A stretch of 64,000 bases of DNA from a phage: the sequence record PZ534512.1, one strand, 5' to 3'. The translations under genes were made by a program, and so were the position numbers. This document shows, one piece after another, positions 2,804-56,014 of the stretch. Position 1 is the stretch's first letter, and each line of letters opens with the position of its first letter. Below the pieces are notes generated by a model. The model did no database searches. It saw only the letters and a list, made by a program, of their open reading frames with translations, and had not been told where the DNA came from.

Positions 2804-3277
2804 ATGAAATCATATACTCAATTTTTAAATGAAGCGGTGTTAAATGAAGCATCTAGCACCGAAATTCAAGCTGTCGCAAAAGCAGCCATTGCAGCGGGTA
2901 AATATTCTTATAAAGATGCTTCTGATGAATCGCGATTCCAGTTCGCACGCGACATGAAAGCGGAAGGATTTACGGGAAATGCAGTTAGTATGGCCTGGAA
3001 AAGTTTAGTTGCTACTGGCGCTGCTTTTGCAAAGGCTTCGGGTAAACCTGCTCCTAAAGCAGATCCTAAAGTCGCACAAGAGAAAAATATTGTTAAAGGA
3101 ATTATCTCCAAATATGAAGCTATCCTTAAAGAGCTTTTAGTAATCAAAACTGAAGGCCAAAAACTAGCTCGTGCTTATAGTTTCAAAGATAACCCACATG
3201 CTCACTCTCTTGAGTATGTTGAAGACATTCAAAAAATTATTAAAGACCGCATTTGGTCTGCTAAACAAATCAAATAA
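2804..3277 (+). CDS. internal-protein-like capsid-targeted protein (157 aa)
   Basis: N-terminus MKSYTQFLNE/AVLNE fits T4 CTS pattern with L-x-E protease sites; AGGAAA RBS; own late promoter. Confidence 0.6.
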   Translation: MKSYTQFLNEAVLNEASSTEIQAVAKAAIAAGKYSYKDASDESRFQFARDMKAEGFTGNAVSMAWKSLVATGAAFAKASGKPAPKADPKVAQEKNIVKGIISKYEAILKELLVIKTEGQKLARAYSFKDNPHAHSLEYVEDIQKIIKDRIWSAKQIK

Positions 3278-7335: not shown

Positions 7336-7866
<531 letters not shown>

Positions 7867-7954: not shown

Positions 7955-8272
7955 ATGAAAACATATCAAGAATTTATTGCAGAATCTGCTGCAGGACAGC
8001 GTGTAGAAGGCGGTTATATCTGGATTGAACAAGTTGAGCCGCCAAGTCGCACTTCTACAGGTAAATGGAAAATCACTGTTGATGGTCCTGGTGGTAAACG
8101 TAGGACTCTTAAAGAAATTAACGGGTACTATGAAGAAGCTCTTTCTGACGCGGGTACTTATATGATGCAAATCATGATTAAAAACCCAGAAAATCGTTTT
8201 GCGGCTAGAGTTTTCCGCCGTATTGGAAATAAGCTTTATGATGCATATTCTAAAAACTTCCCTAAAGAATAA
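7955..8272 (+). CDS. internal protein (IPII/IPIII family), CTS-bearing
   Basis: N-terminus MKTYQEFIAE; basic 105-aa protein; downstream of e as in T4. Confidence 0.75.
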   Translation: MKTYQEFIAESAAGQRVEGGYIWIEQVEPPSRTSTGKWKITVDGPGGKRRTLKEINGYYEEALSDAGTYMMQIMIKNPENRFAARVFRRIGNKLYDAYSKNFPKE

Positions 8273-8288
8273 AAATTAAAGGATACAC

Positions 8289-8762
8289 ATGAAAACATAT
8301 CAAGAATTTATTACTGAAGCAGCTATTAATTCTCAAATTATTGCTGAATCTTTTACTGATCTTTTGAAATTTAAAAAAGGTCAAAAAATCACTGCTGTAT
8401 TGGATGATGGTACAGAAATTGAGATGGATGTACAAGGATATAATTATGCAGTAGATGGAAAACTGTATAATAAATCTCATGCTAAATTTGATTCATTTGA
8501 CGACTTTGTTAATACAGTTGAAGATGAAAAAACTCGTCGATCCATTGCAACTGGTGATGCTAAGGTTCTTATGGCACATGGTCATGAACGCATTCGCGCT
8601 AAACAGAATAAAATGGGTGAAGATAATTTTGCATTAGTTGGTTATCAATCTGGTAAACAAACTTATGGCTATCAACGTACTGCTACAATGTATAATAAAA
8701 ATGGTAAAATTGCCTTTGTAAATAGTAAAGGTTCTATTCAGTACGTTAAATCGTTCAAATAA
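8289..8762 (+). CDS. internal protein (IPII/IPIII family), CTS-bearing
   Basis: N-terminus MKTYQEFITEAAINSQIIAE with two L/I-x-E sites; 157 aa. Confidence 0.75.
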   Translation: MKTYQEFITEAAINSQIIAESFTDLLKFKKGQKITAVLDDGTEIEMDVQGYNYAVDGKLYNKSHAKFDSFDDFVNTVEDEKTRRSIATGDAKVLMAHGHERIRAKQNKMGEDNFALVGYQSGKQTYGYQRTATMYNKNGKIAFVNSKGSIQYVKSFK

Positions 8763-51937: not shown

Positions 51938-52120
51938 ATGGAATTGGTAAAGGTAGTTTTTATGGGGTGGTTTAAGAATGAAAGCATGTTTACTAAAGAA
52001 ATCACAATGATGAAAGATGACGTTCAATGGGCTACTACTCAATATGCTGAAGTTAATAAAGCATTAGTTGAAGCTTTCATTGATGACAAGAAAGTGTGCG
52101 AAGTGGATTGCCGAGGATAA
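51938..52120 (+). CDS. dmd: Dmd antitoxin (inhibitor of RnlA/LsoA)
   Basis: 60 aa; immediately downstream of gene 41 as in T4. Confidence 0.8.
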   Translation: MELVKVVFMGWFKNESMFTKEITMMKDDVQWATTQYAEVNKALVEAFIDDKKVCEVDCRG

Positions 52121-52121
52121 T

Positions 52122-52379
52122 ATGCATATTGTTTTATTTAAACCTACTCCGTATAACGTCAGGAAAAATACTCAATTCAAAGCACTTATTGCAGATACGT
52201 GGGAATTGGTGTTAGATATTCCAGCAGAAGAAAGTCCTCCATTTGGTCGAGTGGAATTTATTAAGTTTGCTGTACGTCCTACGAAGAGGCAGATTCGTCA
52301 GTATAAAAGGTATTTTCGTAAAATCGTTAAGCTAGAGAAACAGTTTGTAACATGTGATTACGCAGAAGTTTTAAAATAG
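52122..52379 (+). CDS. basic RNA-binding-like protein at the T4 61.4 position (TifA-like candidate)
   Basis: 85 aa from ATG after GAGGATAAT RBS; K/R-rich RQIRQYKRYFRKIVK. Confidence 0.4.
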   Translation: MHIVLFKPTPYNVRKNTQFKALIADTWELVLDIPAEESPPFGRVEFIKFAVRPTKRQIRQYKRYFRKIVKLEKQFVTCDYAEVLK

Positions 52380-52381
52380 CT

Positions 52382-52411
52382 GTTTACTTTTGTTGGAAAT
52401 TGAGATACTAT
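52382..52411 (+). promoter_or_regulatory. T4-type early promoter
   Basis: GTTTAC-N18-TACTAT then ctactgaggagattatcATG. Confidence 0.65.
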
Positions 52412-52439
52412 ATAAACATAAACTACTGAGGAGATTATC

Positions 52440-52733
52440 ATGAAAAAATTTATTTTTGCTACAATTTTTACTTTGGCTTCTTGTGCTGCTCAGCCTGCTA
52501 TGGCAGGATATGATAAAGATTTGTGCGAATGGTCTATGACTGCAGATCAGACTGAAGTTGAAACTCAAATTGAAGCGGATATTATGAATATCGTTGAGCG
52601 CGATCGTCCTGAAATGAAAGCTGAAGTGCAAAAACAGCTTAAGTCTGGTGGTGTAATGCAGTATAATTATGTTCTGTATTGTGATAAAAACTTTAATAAT
52701 AAAAATATCATCGCTGAAGTGGTAGGTGAATAA
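52440..52733 (+). CDS. sp: periplasmic protein Spackle-like
   Basis: 97 aa; signal peptide with LASC lipobox-like site. Confidence 0.6.
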   Translation: MKKFIFATIFTLASCAAQPAMAGYDKDLCEWSMTADQTEVETQIEADIMNIVERDRPEMKAEVQKQLKSGGVMQYNYVLYCDKNFNNKNIIAEVVGE

Positions 52734-53347
52734 TGCTTTATCAAATGCACAAGTGTAAAGACACGTACAAATATAAAGGTGCCCAGTGTTATATCATTAA
52801 TCGTGAAAACGCAGGTCCAGGTCATTCGCATCAATCACGGTTTGTATTCGTTAAAAATAATGAAATTATAGCAGTTGCTAATTATATGTTTGTGACCAAT
52901 GATGTTAATCCGGTGCCTTTCACGTATGACAATCTAATGGACTTGGCATATGATTATAATTGGTTTAATCATGACAATTTAGTTCATATTGAAGGCGTAG
53001 GATTTGACATCTCTTATTCTAGTTATTCGTTGTGCCCTATGAGCCGAGCTCATAAAGAGCCTGAATATTTTTCATTTCGTCGGCGTGTAGACTTTAAACG
53101 CAGCACAGAGTATGTCGGTGGAATATTTGTTAAAGATAATCGAATTACTCGCATTATTTATCCTTTGGGCTGTGGTCAAAAAGATATTGATGTTGATTTA
53201 GACTTCACTGAAAATATCATTAATCATATTGCTTCTGTGTATTTTGATATTGATCATAAAATTGTAATATGTGGATATGAATTGCCATCCGAAAAACAGT
53301 CTAAAGTAAATGTTTCTATTGATGACCAAATTTTAATGCTTTTATGA
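52733..53347 (+). CDS. hypothetical protein (204 aa; T4 61.2 position, AdfA-like candidate)
   Basis: TAATG coupling; positional assignment only. Confidence 0.4.
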   Translation: MLYQMHKCKDTYKYKGAQCYIINRENAGPGHSHQSRFVFVKNNEIIAVANYMFVTNDVNPVPFTYDNLMDLAYDYNWFNHDNLVHIEGVGFDISYSSYSLCPMSRAHKEPEYFSFRRRVDFKRSTEYVGGIFVKDNRITRIIYPLGCGQKDIDVDLDFTENIINHIASVYFDIDHKIVICGYELPSEKQSKVNVSIDDQILMLL

Positions 53348-53362
53348 ATAGAGATTAATATG
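53318..53362 (+). repeat. direct repeat copy 1 (gene-junction cassette)
   Basis: attgatgaccaaattttaatgcttttatgaatagagattaatatg. Confidence 0.85.
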
Positions 53363-53716
53363 TATAGTTCTGAATTTTCATATTTAAAAATGGAAAAAAT
53401 TTCATACGATTTCATAGATGAAAAGGTTTATTACAGTTTCCATGAACCACGTTTTAATAGTGAGGTTGGGTTTATTGTAGTAAAAGACAATTTTATTTTA
53501 AAAATATATTCAGCATTAAAGGATTTTCATTACGAAAATATTAACCTAAAATTTAATAAAGAAAACGTTCGTAATTGCGCAGTAACAATTACAGGAAATA
53601 AAGGTACATGTGTTATGCTATCCGATGAAATTAATGATTTGCTAAATGATGCAGAAAATATTACTGCGCCATCTATTGATGACCAAATTTTTAATGCTTT
53701 TATGAATAGAGGTTAA
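53360..53716 (+). CDS. hypothetical protein (118 aa)
   Basis: start and C-terminal coding both lie inside the direct repeats. Confidence 0.5.
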   Translation: MYSSEFSYLKMEKISYDFIDEKVYYSFHEPRFNSEVGFIVVKDNFILKIYSALKDFHYENINLKFNKENVRNCAVTITGNKGTCVMLSDEINDLLNDAENITAPSIDDQIFNAFMNRG

Positions 53717-53720
53717 TATG
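53675..53720 (+). repeat. direct repeat copy 2 (gene-junction cassette)
   Basis: attgatgaccaaatttttaatgcttttatgaatagaggttaatatg; one extra T and one A/G change versus copy 1. Confidence 0.85.
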
Positions 53721-53882
53721 AAAACATATAAAGAATTTATTAAAGAAGATATGGTTGCTGGAGATTCAGGTGGTAATCCTGAAAATATCTCTACTGGAAC
53801 AACATCAGGTGCTGTAGTAAATAAAGGTCCTGAACAGATTCCTAAAAAGAAAAAAGAGGAATCTAAAGAAAAAGAAGAGTAA
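53718..53882 (+). CDS. 54-aa CTS-bearing peptide (candidate packaged internal peptide)
   Basis: N-terminus MKTYKEFIKE then Gly/Lys/Glu-rich tail; GAGG RBS; coupled on both sides. Confidence 0.5.
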   Translation: MKTYKEFIKEDMVAGDSGGNPENISTGTTSGAVVNKGPEQIPKKKKEESKEKEE

Positions 53883-53884
53883 AA

Positions 53885-54913
53885 ATGTCATCAATACCTT
53901 GGATTGATAATGAGTTTGCGTATCGTGCATTGGCTCATTTACCTAAATTCACACAAGTAAATAATAGTTCAACTTTTAAATTACGGTTTAGATGCCCTGT
54001 TTGCGGAGATTCAAAAACCGACCAAAATAAAGCCCGTGGATGGTATTATGGTGATAATAATGAAGGAAATATTCATTGTTATAACTGTAACTATCATGCA
54101 CCAATCGGAATATATTTAAAGGAGTTTGAACCTGATTTATATCGTGAGTATATCTTTGAAATAAGAAAAGAAAAAGGTAAAAGTCGTCCAGTAGAAAAAC
54201 CTAAAGAACTTCCTAAACAACCTGAGAAGAAAATAATTAAATCTCTTCCGTCATGTGTTAGATTAGATAAACTGGCGGAAGACCATCCAATTATAAAATA
54301 TGTAAAAGCTCGTTGTATTCCAAAGGATAAATGGAAATATCTTTGGTTTACAACCGAATGGCCTAAATTAGTTAATAGCATAGCACCGGGAACATATAAA
54401 AAGGAAATACCTGAGCCTCGTCTTGTTATTCCAATTTATAATGCTAATGGAAAAGCTGAGTCTTTTCAAGGACGTGCATTAAAGAAAGATGCTCCCCAAA
54501 AATATATCACTATCAAAGCTTATCCTGAAGCAACAAAAATCTATGGAGTCGAACGAGTTAAAGATGGTGATGTATATGTTCTAGAAGGACCTATAGATTC
54601 ACTTTTTATTGAAAATGGTATAGCTATTACAGGTGGTCAATTAGACCTAGAAGTTGTTCCATTTAAAGATAGACGTGTGTGGGTTTTAGATAATGAACCT
54701 CGTCACCCTGACACTATTAAACGAATGACTAAATTAGTTGATGCAGGAGAAAGGGTTATGTTTTGGGATAAATCTCCCTGGAAATCAAAAGATGTTAATG
54801 ATATGATTAGAAAGGAAGGTGCAACCCCTGAACAAATTATGGAATATATGAAAAATAATATTGCCCAGGGGTTGATGGCTAAAATGCGGCTATCTAAATA
54901 TGCTAAGATTTAA
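53885..54913 (+). CDS. 61: DNA primase gp61
   Basis: 342 aa; N-terminal zinc ribbon CPVCGDS...CYNC; TOPRIM region. Confidence 0.93.
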   Translation: MSSIPWIDNEFAYRALAHLPKFTQVNNSSTFKLRFRCPVCGDSKTDQNKARGWYYGDNNEGNIHCYNCNYHAPIGIYLKEFEPDLYREYIFEIRKEKGKSRPVEKPKELPKQPEKKIIKSLPSCVRLDKLAEDHPIIKYVKARCIPKDKWKYLWFTTEWPKLVNSIAPGTYKKEIPEPRLVIPIYNANGKAESFQGRALKKDAPQKYITIKAYPEATKIYGVERVKDGDVYVLEGPIDSLFIENGIAITGGQLDLEVVPFKDRRVWVLDNEPRHPDTIKRMTKLVDAGERVMFWDKSPWKSKDVNDMIRKEGATPEQIMEYMKNNIAQGLMAKMRLSKYAKI

Positions 54914-55110
54914 ATTAACCCAACTAAAGCAAATGCTAAATCTACGAATGTATCAAGAGTAACTACTGGAATATTAATACCATGTGCAATTGCAACAGGT
55001 GATAAAATAAAGTTCCAGAGTAAAATTCCTACCATAGCAGAAATAGTAAAAGCTATACGCTTTTTATTACCTTTTATGGCATTAATAAGTGCCATTAATT
55101 TTTGTACCAT
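54910..55110 (-). CDS. antisense small membrane protein (66 aa)
   Basis: only intergenic minus-strand ORF; AAGGAGG 4 nt upstream of ATG; two hydrophobic helices; stop overlaps gene 61 stop. Confidence 0.5.
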   Translation of the reverse strand: MVQKLMALINAIKGNKKRIAFTISAMVGILLWNFILSPVAIAHGINIPVVTLDTFVDLAFALVGLI

Positions 55111-55122
55111 ATGTCCTCCTTA

Positions 55123-55147
55123 TTGCTTTATATATTTATTGTATAAT
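55123..55147 (+). promoter_or_regulatory. MotA-dependent middle promoter candidate for gene 56
   Basis: MotA box TTGCTTTA, 11 nt spacer, -10 TATAAT. Confidence 0.55.
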
Positions 55148-55181
55148 TAATCTACTAACCCATGAATTGAAAGGAAAAATA

Positions 55182-55700
55182 ATGGCTTACTTTAATGAAT
55201 GTAGTCAACTGATTGAAGGCGCTGATAAAGCTCAAAATGAATACTGGGATATTCTCGGTGATGAAAAAGACCCGCTGCAAGTTATGCTTGATATGCAGAA
55301 ATCTCTGCAGGTTCGTTTAGCTAAAGATAAACCTGAATATAATCGTCATCCTGATGACTTGGCTACTGCAGGCGAAGTTGTTGATTGGCTGCGCAATCAG
55401 AAAGATTATATTGATGATGAATTCCGCGAACTTCTGACTTCTCTTGGTGGTATGAGCAATGGCGAAAAAGATGCGTCTGCTGTATGGAAACCTTGGAAGT
55501 CACAGCATGGTGAACGCCGTGAAACTTTAATTACTGATTTGTCTCCACAAGACCAGTTGGAAATTAAATTCGAAATGATTGATATTCTTCATTTCGTTCT
55601 GAACATGTTCCAAGGTCTCGGTCTTACGGCTGAAGAAATCTTTAAACTTTATTATCTGAAAAATGCTGAAAATTTCGCTCGTCAAGACCGAGGTTATTAA
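55182..55700 (+). CDS. 56: dCTP pyrophosphatase gp56 (MazG-like)
   Basis: 172 aa from MAYFNECSQ; AAGGAAAAATA RBS. Confidence 0.85.
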   Translation: MAYFNECSQLIEGADKAQNEYWDILGDEKDPLQVMLDMQKSLQVRLAKDKPEYNRHPDDLATAGEVVDWLRNQKDYIDDEFRELLTSLGGMSNGEKDASAVWKPWKSQHGERRETLITDLSPQDQLEIKFEMIDILHFVLNMFQGLGLTAEEIFKLYYLKNAENFARQDRGY

Positions 55701-55730
55701 TAGCTCGTCTTAAAAGCCGTGAGAATTTAT

Positions 55731-55738
55731 TATAAATA
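55731..55738 (+). promoter_or_regulatory. T4 late promoter TATAAATA
   Basis: exact motif ~30 nt upstream of soc. Confidence 0.6.
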
Positions 55739-55768
55739 ATCATGTAATTTAAATAAAAGGAGAATTAC

Positions 55769-56014
55769 ATGGCTAGTACTCGCGGTTATGTTAATATCAA
55801 AACATTTGAGCAGAAATTAGATGGAAATAAGAAAATTGAAGGAAAGGAAATTTCTGTAGCTTTCCCTCTTTATTCTGACGTTCACAAAATTTCTGGTGCT
55901 CATTACCAGACATTCCCTTCAGAAAAAGCAGCATATTCTACAGTATATGAAGAAAATCAACGTGATGCATGGATTACTGCAAACGAAGATTTGTGGAAAG
56001 TAACTGGTGAATAA
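55769..56014 (+). CDS. soc: small outer capsid protein Soc
   Basis: 81 aa MASTRGYVNIKTFEQKLDGNKKIEGKEISVAFPLYSDVHK; near-identical to T4 Soc. Confidence 0.92.
   Translation: MASTRGYVNIKTFEQKLDGNKKIEGKEISVAFPLYSDVHKISGAHYQTFPSEKAAYSTVYEENQRDAWITANEDLWKVTGE

Follow-up and report, generated by a model that had tools for sequence, protein, structure and literature searches.

Gene 61.1 of T4-type phages encodes a small conserved protein that resembles the cleavage site and N-fist of gp23, the major capsid protein

The window analysed here is the whole of a 64,000-nucleotide stretch of phage DNA (sequence record PZ534512.1). It is a segment of a Tequatrovirus (T4-type) genome whose + strand corresponds to the T4 minus strand, and the closest record is phage vB_EcoM_G10400 (G10400), at 99.9% identity. 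Immediately upstream of the primase gene 61 lies gene 61.1, which encodes a protein of 54 amino acids (MKTYKEFIKEDMVAGDSGGNPENISTGTTSGAVVNKGPEQIPKKKKEESKEKEE). The features of the locus are as follows.

53709..53712, + strand: Shine-Dalgarno GAGG of 61.1, 5 nt before the ATG and within the 3' end of the upstream ORF
53718..53882, + strand: gene 61.1 coding sequence, 54 codons plus TAA (ATG at 53718, TAA at 53880-53882), orthologue of T4 gp61.1
53718..53747, + strand: codons 1-10, decapeptide MKTYKEFIKE, resembling the capsid-targeting sequence (CTS) of the internal proteins (IPs)
53739-53747, + strand: codons 8-10, I-K-E, a gp21-type I/L-x-E cleavage motif (sequence motif)
53748..53825, + strand: codons 11-36, N-fist-like segment DMVAGDSGGNPENISTGTTSGAVVNK, aligning with gp23 66-91; the invariant core of the family
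53826..53840, + strand: codons 37-41, GPEQI, whose conserved G-P corresponds to gp23 G92-P93
53841..53879, + strand: codons 42-54, Lys-rich charged tail PKKKKEESKEKEE, strongly basic in most relatives
53885..54913, + strand: gene 61, DNA primase, the syntenic partner of 61.1 across Straboviridae

The gene is closely spaced on both sides. The TAA stop of the upstream ORF (53714-53716) is followed by the 61.1 start in a TAAtATG junction, and the gene 61 start lies 2 nt past the 61.1 stop in a TAAaaATG junction. The final codons of the 61.1 tail double as the purine-rich ribosome-binding region of gene 61. The first-pass annotation had these coordinates and both junctions right. Its description of the ORF as unannotated was mistaken: the ORF is gene 61.1 in T4, RB32, RB14, T2 and nearly all Tequatrovirus records, and the gene itself is already known and annotated as T4 gene 61.1. 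The protein encoded in the window is identical to T4 gp61.1 (NP_049649.1; UniProt P39228, "5.9 kDa protein") at 52 of 54 positions, with Y4 and T26 where T4 has F4 and I26 (T4 reads MKTFKEFIKE...ISIG...). It matches the PHROG family phrog_1823 over its full length (1-54 of 54, E = 7e-34), and residues 8-53 also match the C-terminus of phrog_2086, a family of longer forms. Pfam and NCBIfam gave zero matches for short or long forms of 61.1, and Rfam returned nothing at 52000-56000 of the window. The literature search found no account of 61.1 function, of a homology to the gp23 cleavage site or N-fist, or of its CTS. The only existing clue in the databases is the automatic "major capsid" label on some 61.1 records.

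The position of 61.1 has been kept over long evolutionary distances. The gene stands upstream of primase gene 61 and downstream of helicase gene 41 in the window, T4, teqhad, G10400, KP27, Konradin, RB49, VH7D and divergent T4-like contigs. In the divergent contigs the order is uvsX-40-41-61.1-61-56, with no gene between 41, 61.1 and 61. The same 41-61.1-61 order is found in KVP40-like, Acinetobacter and Klebsiella phages, and this comparison points to it as the ancestral gene order. In KP27 and RB49, other genes lie between 61.1 and 61. The head-assembly chaperone gp40 is encoded in the same conserved early cluster (uvsX-40-41-61.1-61). In the T-even phages the neighbourhood is one of counter-defence, comprising dmd, spackle and 61.2, which encodes the anti-DarT factor AdfA (PF23813, E = 1e-130).

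Several features around 61.1 deserve a separate record. The 118-aa ORF between 61.2 and 61.1 (53360..53716, + strand) corresponds to the C-terminal half of AdfA/gp61.2, of which it is a truncated paralogue. It matches residues 113-211 of PF23813 (E = 9e-8) and is 32% identical to the G10400 orthologue of 61.2, which is the intact form of the window's own 61.2. RB32, G10400 and teqhad have the paralogue, and T4 lacks it. A direct repeat of ~49 nt (53315-53362 and 53672-53720) covers the 3' ends of 61.2 and of the 118-aa ORF and recreates the ribosome-binding site and TAAtATG junction, and the paralogue looks like a duplication or an insertion by recombination. The adfA gene of the window (61.2, 52733..53347) has a 1-nt deletion in a T5 run (53331-53334) relative to T4 and G10400. 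The deletion changes the AdfA C-terminus from ...SIDDQIFNAFMNR. to ...SIDDQILMLL*, shifts the stop 12 nt upstream and leaves the next ORF no longer coupled through TAAtATG; the variant may be real, or the homopolymer may have been misread in sequencing. On the other side of gene 61, the T4 interval up to soc holds dam, 56 and segF, and the corresponding part of the window (54910..56014) has neither dam nor segF. It begins with a 66-aa minus-strand ORF (54910..55110) of hydrophobic, membrane-like sequence. Gene 56 (dCTPase) probably starts at an ATG giving MAYFNEC..., not at the listed GTG at 55089, and soc (55769..56014) is preceded by a late promoter, TATAAATA, at 55731.

Relatives of gp61.1 were found by tblastn in 1433 phage records, and the hosts of these phages include Escherichia, Klebsiella, Aeromonas, Acinetobacter, Enterobacter and Vibrio. 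Searching 1.84 billion representatives exhaustively with a profile recovered only 50 family clusters. The short forms, to which the window protein belongs, have 50-70 aa and N-termini that include MK[TS][FY].[ED][FL]... and MIGFKQFVE.... The long forms (~130-165 aa, typically about 155) have a conserved helical N-domain before the same C-terminal module, with the pattern Y..R...L...PF.EW.AYK.GIID..GN...P.T..EK..YT.FH..VR. They include KP27, Konradin, the VH7D/KVP40 type, the S16/Melville type and the Tevenvirinae-like contigs L026-L031. A structural model of the long-form N-domain is confident (pLDDT >90 for residues 20-70) and showed no resemblance to any solved structure. A copy of this N-domain was sought in the window and upstream of the short forms, and none was found. 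In the T-even lineage the long N-domain appears to have been replaced by a ten-residue N-terminus of the IP-CTS type.

A further size class of ~240-250 aa occurs in some divergent T4-like metagenomic phages (P0040, P0054, P0058 and P0169, and L035-L037 at 8001-8744). These proteins contain the N-fist-like motif and the Lys tail, after which come another CTS-like segment, M.EV..FKQFVEGLEA, and a further C-terminal domain of ~95 aa. The second segment resembles the start of RB49 gp61.1 (MIGFKQFVEE...). The arrangement suggests that CTS-like peptides have been shuffled as modules within the 61.1 family.

Conservation in the family is concentrated at one junction and the segment that follows it. 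A Glu stands one or two residues before the motif [MV][VI][AG]GD in 50 of 50 clusters, and the P3 position is hydrophobic in 46 of them (hydrophobic-x-Glu, the gp21-type L/I-x-E), while the flanking linker varies freely. Selection was assessed on the 30-codon core (MVAGD...EQI), using short and long forms from different genera. Synonymous sites were saturated (pS 0.5-0.9), nonsynonymous differences were few (pN 0.03-0.2), and dN/dS was 0.02-0.17. The reading frame, and not just the nucleotide sequence, is conserved in relatives across genera. Gene 61.1 is a real gene under strong purifying selection.

The conserved segment resembles part of the major capsid protein. Residues 2-38 of gp61.1 align without gaps to residues 57-93 of T4 gp23, with 16 of 37 positions identical (43%, BLASTP E = 1e-8). 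This places Glu10 of gp61.1 opposite Glu65 of gp23, the gp21 cleavage site, and residues 11-36 opposite gp23 66-91, which is the N-fist of mature gp23 (gp23*). A profile built from 14 short forms and searched against all PDB sequences matched only T4 gp23 chains (gp23 58-94, E = 1.2e-5). In the reciprocal direction, gp23 1-128 matched phrog_1823 (gp23 59-101, E = 4e-10) and the long-form phrog_2086 (gp23 40-101, E = 5e-8). The core of the homology reads GD.G....IA.G.TSGAV...GP. The similarity is also present in RB49, KP27, Konradin and VH7D, and in the RB49, KP27 and PHROG profiles it extends to about gp23 residue 100-101. Co-variation between cognate proteins was sought, and 61.1/gp23 pairs from the same phage were no closer than pairs from different phages; the similarity is therefore ancient paralogy. 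Recent gene conversion from a phage's own gp23 was ruled out on the same ground. On these alignments, gp61.1 can be described as the cleavage site and N-fist of gp23 copied out as a separate protein.

The corresponding region of gp23 has a well-described part in head maturation. The propeptides stripped by the gp21 protease measure 65 residues in gp23 and 10 in gp24; the N-fist comprises gp23 66-91 (PMC7136217). Residues 66-105 of gp23 (N-fist and N-arm) are disordered and lie inside the unexpanded head, where they probably touch the scaffold. Expansion brings them to the outside, where they bind four neighbouring subunits and contribute to forming the Soc site, and the length-determining mutations A66D, A94V and G97S map within them (PMC9546572, PMC9958956). 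Opposite gp23 A66, gp61.1 naturally has an Asp (Asp11). Positions 94 and 97 of gp23 lie past the pairwise T4 alignment with gp61.1 and inside the profile-level extension. The first-pass annotation had described what follows the decapeptide as a Gly/Lys/Glu-rich, probably disordered tail. That description does not survive the family comparison: residues 11-41 are the best-conserved part of the family and homologous to the mature gp23 N-terminus. An AF2 model of the isolated short form has low confidence (pLDDT 59) and shows an N-terminal helix only (residues 4-13), the rest being coil, as expected for a segment that is ordered only on its partner.

The likeness to gp23 is confined to residues 57-93 (101) of that protein. 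Since gp61.1 has none of the HK97-fold A, P, E-loop and I domains, it is unable to build a shell. Some GenBank and UniRef records name it a "major capsid (domain-containing) protein", which is a misnomer. In a comparison of four phages, the most invariant stretch of gp23 was ~98-118 (GMVRRAIPNLIAFDICGVQP), which has no counterpart in gp61.1. The 29-residue Gol segment, the activator of the Lit protease, has been described as the most conserved region of gp23, and we take the Gol peptide to span about residues 93-121.

The first ten residues of gp61.1 point to a different set of head proteins. The window contains three IP-type genes.

2804..3277: IP-type gene, MKSYTQFLNEA..., CTS-bearing
7955..8272: IP gene, MKTYQEFIAE..., CTS-bearing
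8289..8762: IP gene, MKTYQEFITE..., phrog_3155 "internal virion protein" / DUF7412

Identity to MKTYQEFIAE was scored for the 637 ATG-started frames of at least 40 aa in the window, and only three score 8/10 or more. They are the IP gene at 7955 (10/10), the IP gene at 8289 (9/10) and 61.1 (8/10); the next-best frame is the third IP-like ORF, at 2804, with 5/10. The likeness thus extends beyond the common MKT start, since every other frame stays at 5/10 or below. The match of the first ten residues to the window's internal proteins, proposed in the first-pass annotation, is far beyond chance, and the survey of 637 frames shows that it is not limited to the MKTY start. At the nucleotide level, the first 30 nt of 61.1 are identical to the IP genes at 27 positions, and the decapeptide is retained in other genera despite synonymous codon changes. 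Identity to RB69 ORF124 (MKTYKEFIAE) is 9/10. Genuine internal-protein genes of RB69 start with MKTYKEFIAE and MKTYKEFIS, and the Q5K difference therefore occurs in natural CTSs. Mutagenesis of the CTS has assigned targeting mainly to residues 4 and 7, and processing to residues 8 and 10 (Mullaney and Black 1996, reviewed in PMC9026906). At all four mapped positions (Y4, F7, I8 and E10), gp61.1 is identical to the IP CTS, and I8-K9-E10 is the sole gp21-type I/L-x-E sequence motif in the protein. The first ten residues of gp61.1 fall within the natural range of IP capsid-targeting sequences. No co-variation between 61.1 and the CTS was detected, because the 61.1 N-terminus of an RB69-like phage (MKSFKEVMNE) has drifted from that phage's own CTS (MKTYQEFIAE).

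The natural spread of such sequences is illustrated by RB69 (L034, 56000-82000), where at least seven genes have CTS-type N-termini (p123, p124, p125, p127, p149, ipI and p156). Their starts are MKTYQEFIAE, MKTYKEFIAE, MKTYKEFISP, MKMYQEFIIE, MKTYAEFLTE, MKTYMNFYQN and MKTYQEFIAA, and several of these genes are annotated merely as hypothetical. A shared pattern was also observed among the last ten residues of the T4 gp23 propeptide (AQAFGSFLTE, 56-65), the gp24 propeptide (MAKINELLRE) and the IP CTS (MKTYQEFIAE): a hydrophobic or aromatic residue at position 4, hydrophobic residues at positions 7 and 8, and Glu at position 10. It may be that the CTS is itself a capsid-protein propeptide end reduced to its minimum.

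The timing of T4 gene expression bears on what gp61.1 could do. The T4 61.1 transcript has been classed as early, as have those of ipII and ipIII, whose proteins are late (PMC9697503 Table S2). In the same time-course proteome, which covers 85% of T4 proteins, gp61.1 was not detected (protein class NA) and the gene 61 protein was classed as middle (PMC9697503 Table S2). On the + strand of the window, no late promoter of the type found before soc occurs between 14121 and 55731. The IP loci do have late-promoter motifs, one at 2756 and others at 7338/7351, before e (7372..7866) and two IP genes. Mass spectrometry of T4 head processing has identified nine cleaved head proteins, and 61.1 is not mentioned (PMC5694885). 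For a head component, the available proteomics on gp61.1 is mildly negative, and the case for one is built on sequence comparison.

The best explanation, to which we give a probability of roughly 0.4, is that gp61.1 is a minor polypeptide associated with the prohead core, where it would be recruited and cut by gp21 after Glu10 to leave a 44-residue peptide. Entry of gp61.1 into the prohead scaffolding core would depend on its N-terminal part (CTS for the short forms, N-domain for the long ones), on the gp23-like segment, or on both. The gp21 prohead protease would then cut between I-K-E and D, freeing a peptide that consists of the N-fist-like segment and the charged tail. The predicted mature product (residues 11-54) has 44 residues, a mass of 4.6 kDa and a pI of 5.0; the uncleaved tryptic peptide of gp61.1 in the window and T4 is EDMVAGDSGGNPENIS[I/T]GTTSGAVVNK. 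The peptide may stay in the head as a low-copy internal peptide. Alternatively, it may transiently compete with the gp23 N-terminus for partners (the scaffold or gp21) during head assembly. Targeting, cleavage and the role of the product are what we infer from the homology, the CTS-like start, the junction, the selection and the synteny observed above. An additional packaged peptide, as the first-pass annotation had suggested, is plausible.

The prohead-peptide model is favoured over its rivals because the CTS of gp61.1 retains every functionally mapped residue, because a cleavage-type junction is present family-wide in exact register with the gp23 maturation site, and because the exchange of the N-domain for a minimal CTS has a parallel in other phage head proteins, whose propeptides are likewise long or short. 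Against it stand the early T4 transcript, the missing late promoter, the lack of proteomic detection and the absence of gp61.1 from the list of cleaved T4 head proteins. The long forms have no IP-type N-terminal CTS, and RB69-like phages show no co-variation of the N-terminus with the CTS. The mature part of gp61.1 is also highly conserved and, in T4, acidic to neutral, whereas typical IPs are hypervariable and basic.

The early transcript and the missing late promoter are better matched by a protein that acts in the cytoplasm and is never packaged. Such a protein would be an early decoy or competitor that displays the gp23 cleavage-site/N-fist epitope to a partner of gp23. The partner could be a host immune sensor of capsid protein, or gp21, gp22, gp31/GroEL or EF-Tu. 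The counter-defence genes around 61.1 in T-even phages (dmd, spackle and adfA) fit this proposal, as does the finding that the conserved part is the gp23-like segment and not the N-terminus. Capsid proteins are known to trigger Lit, CapRel and other systems (PMC10286901, PMC9712102), and the first quarter of gp23 contains its Gol/EF-Tu-binding region (PMC3014915). Its non-detection by proteomics, however, speaks against an abundant stoichiometric decoy. Conservation across phages of Vibrio, Acinetobacter, Aeromonas and Klebsiella fits a partner inside the phage better than a single host sensor. The universal hydrophobic-x-Glu before the motif would be unnecessary for mimicking mature gp23*, and gp23 ~98-118, probably the Gol core, is without counterpart in the 54-aa protein. 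A cytoplasmic decoy is possible, though we would expect it to prove wrong. In a related proposal gp61.1, as a small early protein kept by all T4-like phages, would imitate in trans the maturation site and N-fist of gp23 and either tune head assembly or blind a capsid-sensing host defence. In assembly, gp61.1 and the gp23 N-terminus would be rivals for the scaffold or the gp21 protease; the gp23 length mutations A66D, A94V and G97S lie in or just past the copied stretch, where gp61.1 itself carries Asp opposite A66. In immunity, it would show the host defence a non-activating copy of a conserved capsid epitope. This version we consider rather unlikely.

The genomic setting has instead suggested a link with replication. 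In this proposal gp61.1 would be a primosome accessory factor that works alongside the helicase (gp41) and the primase (gp61), for instance with its Lys-rich tail on DNA, and the likeness to gp23 would be a relic. The 41-61.1-61 order is kept even in very divergent T4-like contigs, the window's primase ATG follows the 61.1 stop at a distance of 2 nt, and an early T4 transcript befits a gene of the replication cluster, whose gene 61 product is classed as middle. Yet the gp23-like motif and the cleavage-type junction, which are under the strongest selection, are left unexplained. A search of 149 relatives turned up no fusion to primase, helicase or head proteins, and in KP27 and RB49 other genes come between 61.1 and 61; we regard a primosome role as improbable. 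The tight spacing at both junctions, with the gene 61 ribosome-binding region inside the 61.1 3' end, might also be read as that of a mere leader ORF, whose translation delivers ribosomes to a weak gene 61 start and whose peptide is functionless. Amino acids are conserved in this family while synonymous sites are saturated, and the family persists where it is not adjacent to 61 and as forms of 130-250 aa, so that a coupling leader is very improbable and close to refuted. The least credible of these proposals is the alternative in the first-pass annotation, a spare CTS cassette awaiting recombinational fusion to other genes. The near-identity of its first 30 nt to the IP genes and the modular shuffling seen in the ~250-aa relatives, with their second FKQFVE segment before an extra C-domain, would agree with it. 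The codons in common, however, are simply those that T4 uses most, and upstream of the starts the sequences show no relation (3-9 of 25 nt). The gene is also ancient, with a strongly conserved mature part of its own and a longer ancestral form of ~155 aa. Both the coupling leader and the spare cassette were rejected on the dN/dS values. What probability the named models leave belongs to something else.

Gene 61.1 is one of the few small "hypothetical" ORFs that essentially all T4-like phages (Straboviridae) have kept. In the T-even phages, a capsid-protein fragment has apparently been fitted with a targeting-like peptide of the IP type, which turns an anonymous ORF into a testable hypothesis. 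On the prohead-peptide model, gp61.1 would be a propeptide-bearing T4 head-associated protein whose mature part is a fragment of a capsid protein. If it is packaged and cleaved, the T4 head inventory gains a member that is conserved family-wide, and a CTS has been grafted onto a non-IP gene, which bears on the engineering of protein delivery by T4. An action in trans, on assembly or on immunity, would make it a capsid-protein mimic of a new kind.

Comparison with known systems places gp61.1 between several of them. T4 gp61.1 is like that of the window in lying between 61.2 and 61, in its length and in its coupling to its neighbours, but its locus is without the 118-aa AdfA-C paralogue that the window has between 61.2 and 61.1. 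T4 gp23 (PDB 6uzc, 7vs5 and 5vf3) shares with gp61.1 the end of the propeptide, the P3-P1 cleavage motif, the N-fist and the start of the N-arm; unlike gp61.1, it also has the HK97-fold domains and the invariant 98-118 stretch. The T4 proteins IPI, IPII and IPIII share the decapeptide MKTY.EFI.E (aromatic-4, Phe-7, Ile-8 and Glu-10). The mature part of IP-type proteins is basic and hypervariable, whereas that of gp61.1 (11-54, pI 5.0) has a core that is nearly invariant across genera, and 61.1 differs from the IP genes in having no late promoter and in lying outside the IP loci near e and 57B. The propeptide of the vertex protein gp24 (MAKINELLRE, followed by S) is, like the start of gp61.1, short and amphipathic and ends in hydrophobic-x-Glu, and it is removed by the prohead protease. 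With the propeptides of gp24 and of giant phages, gp61.1 shares the pattern and not the sequence, and its own cleavage is predicted. In phage SPN3US, head-protein propeptides exceed 100 residues (PMC5694885), and the ~105-aa N-domain of the long forms of gp61.1 would parallel them if it is cleaved.
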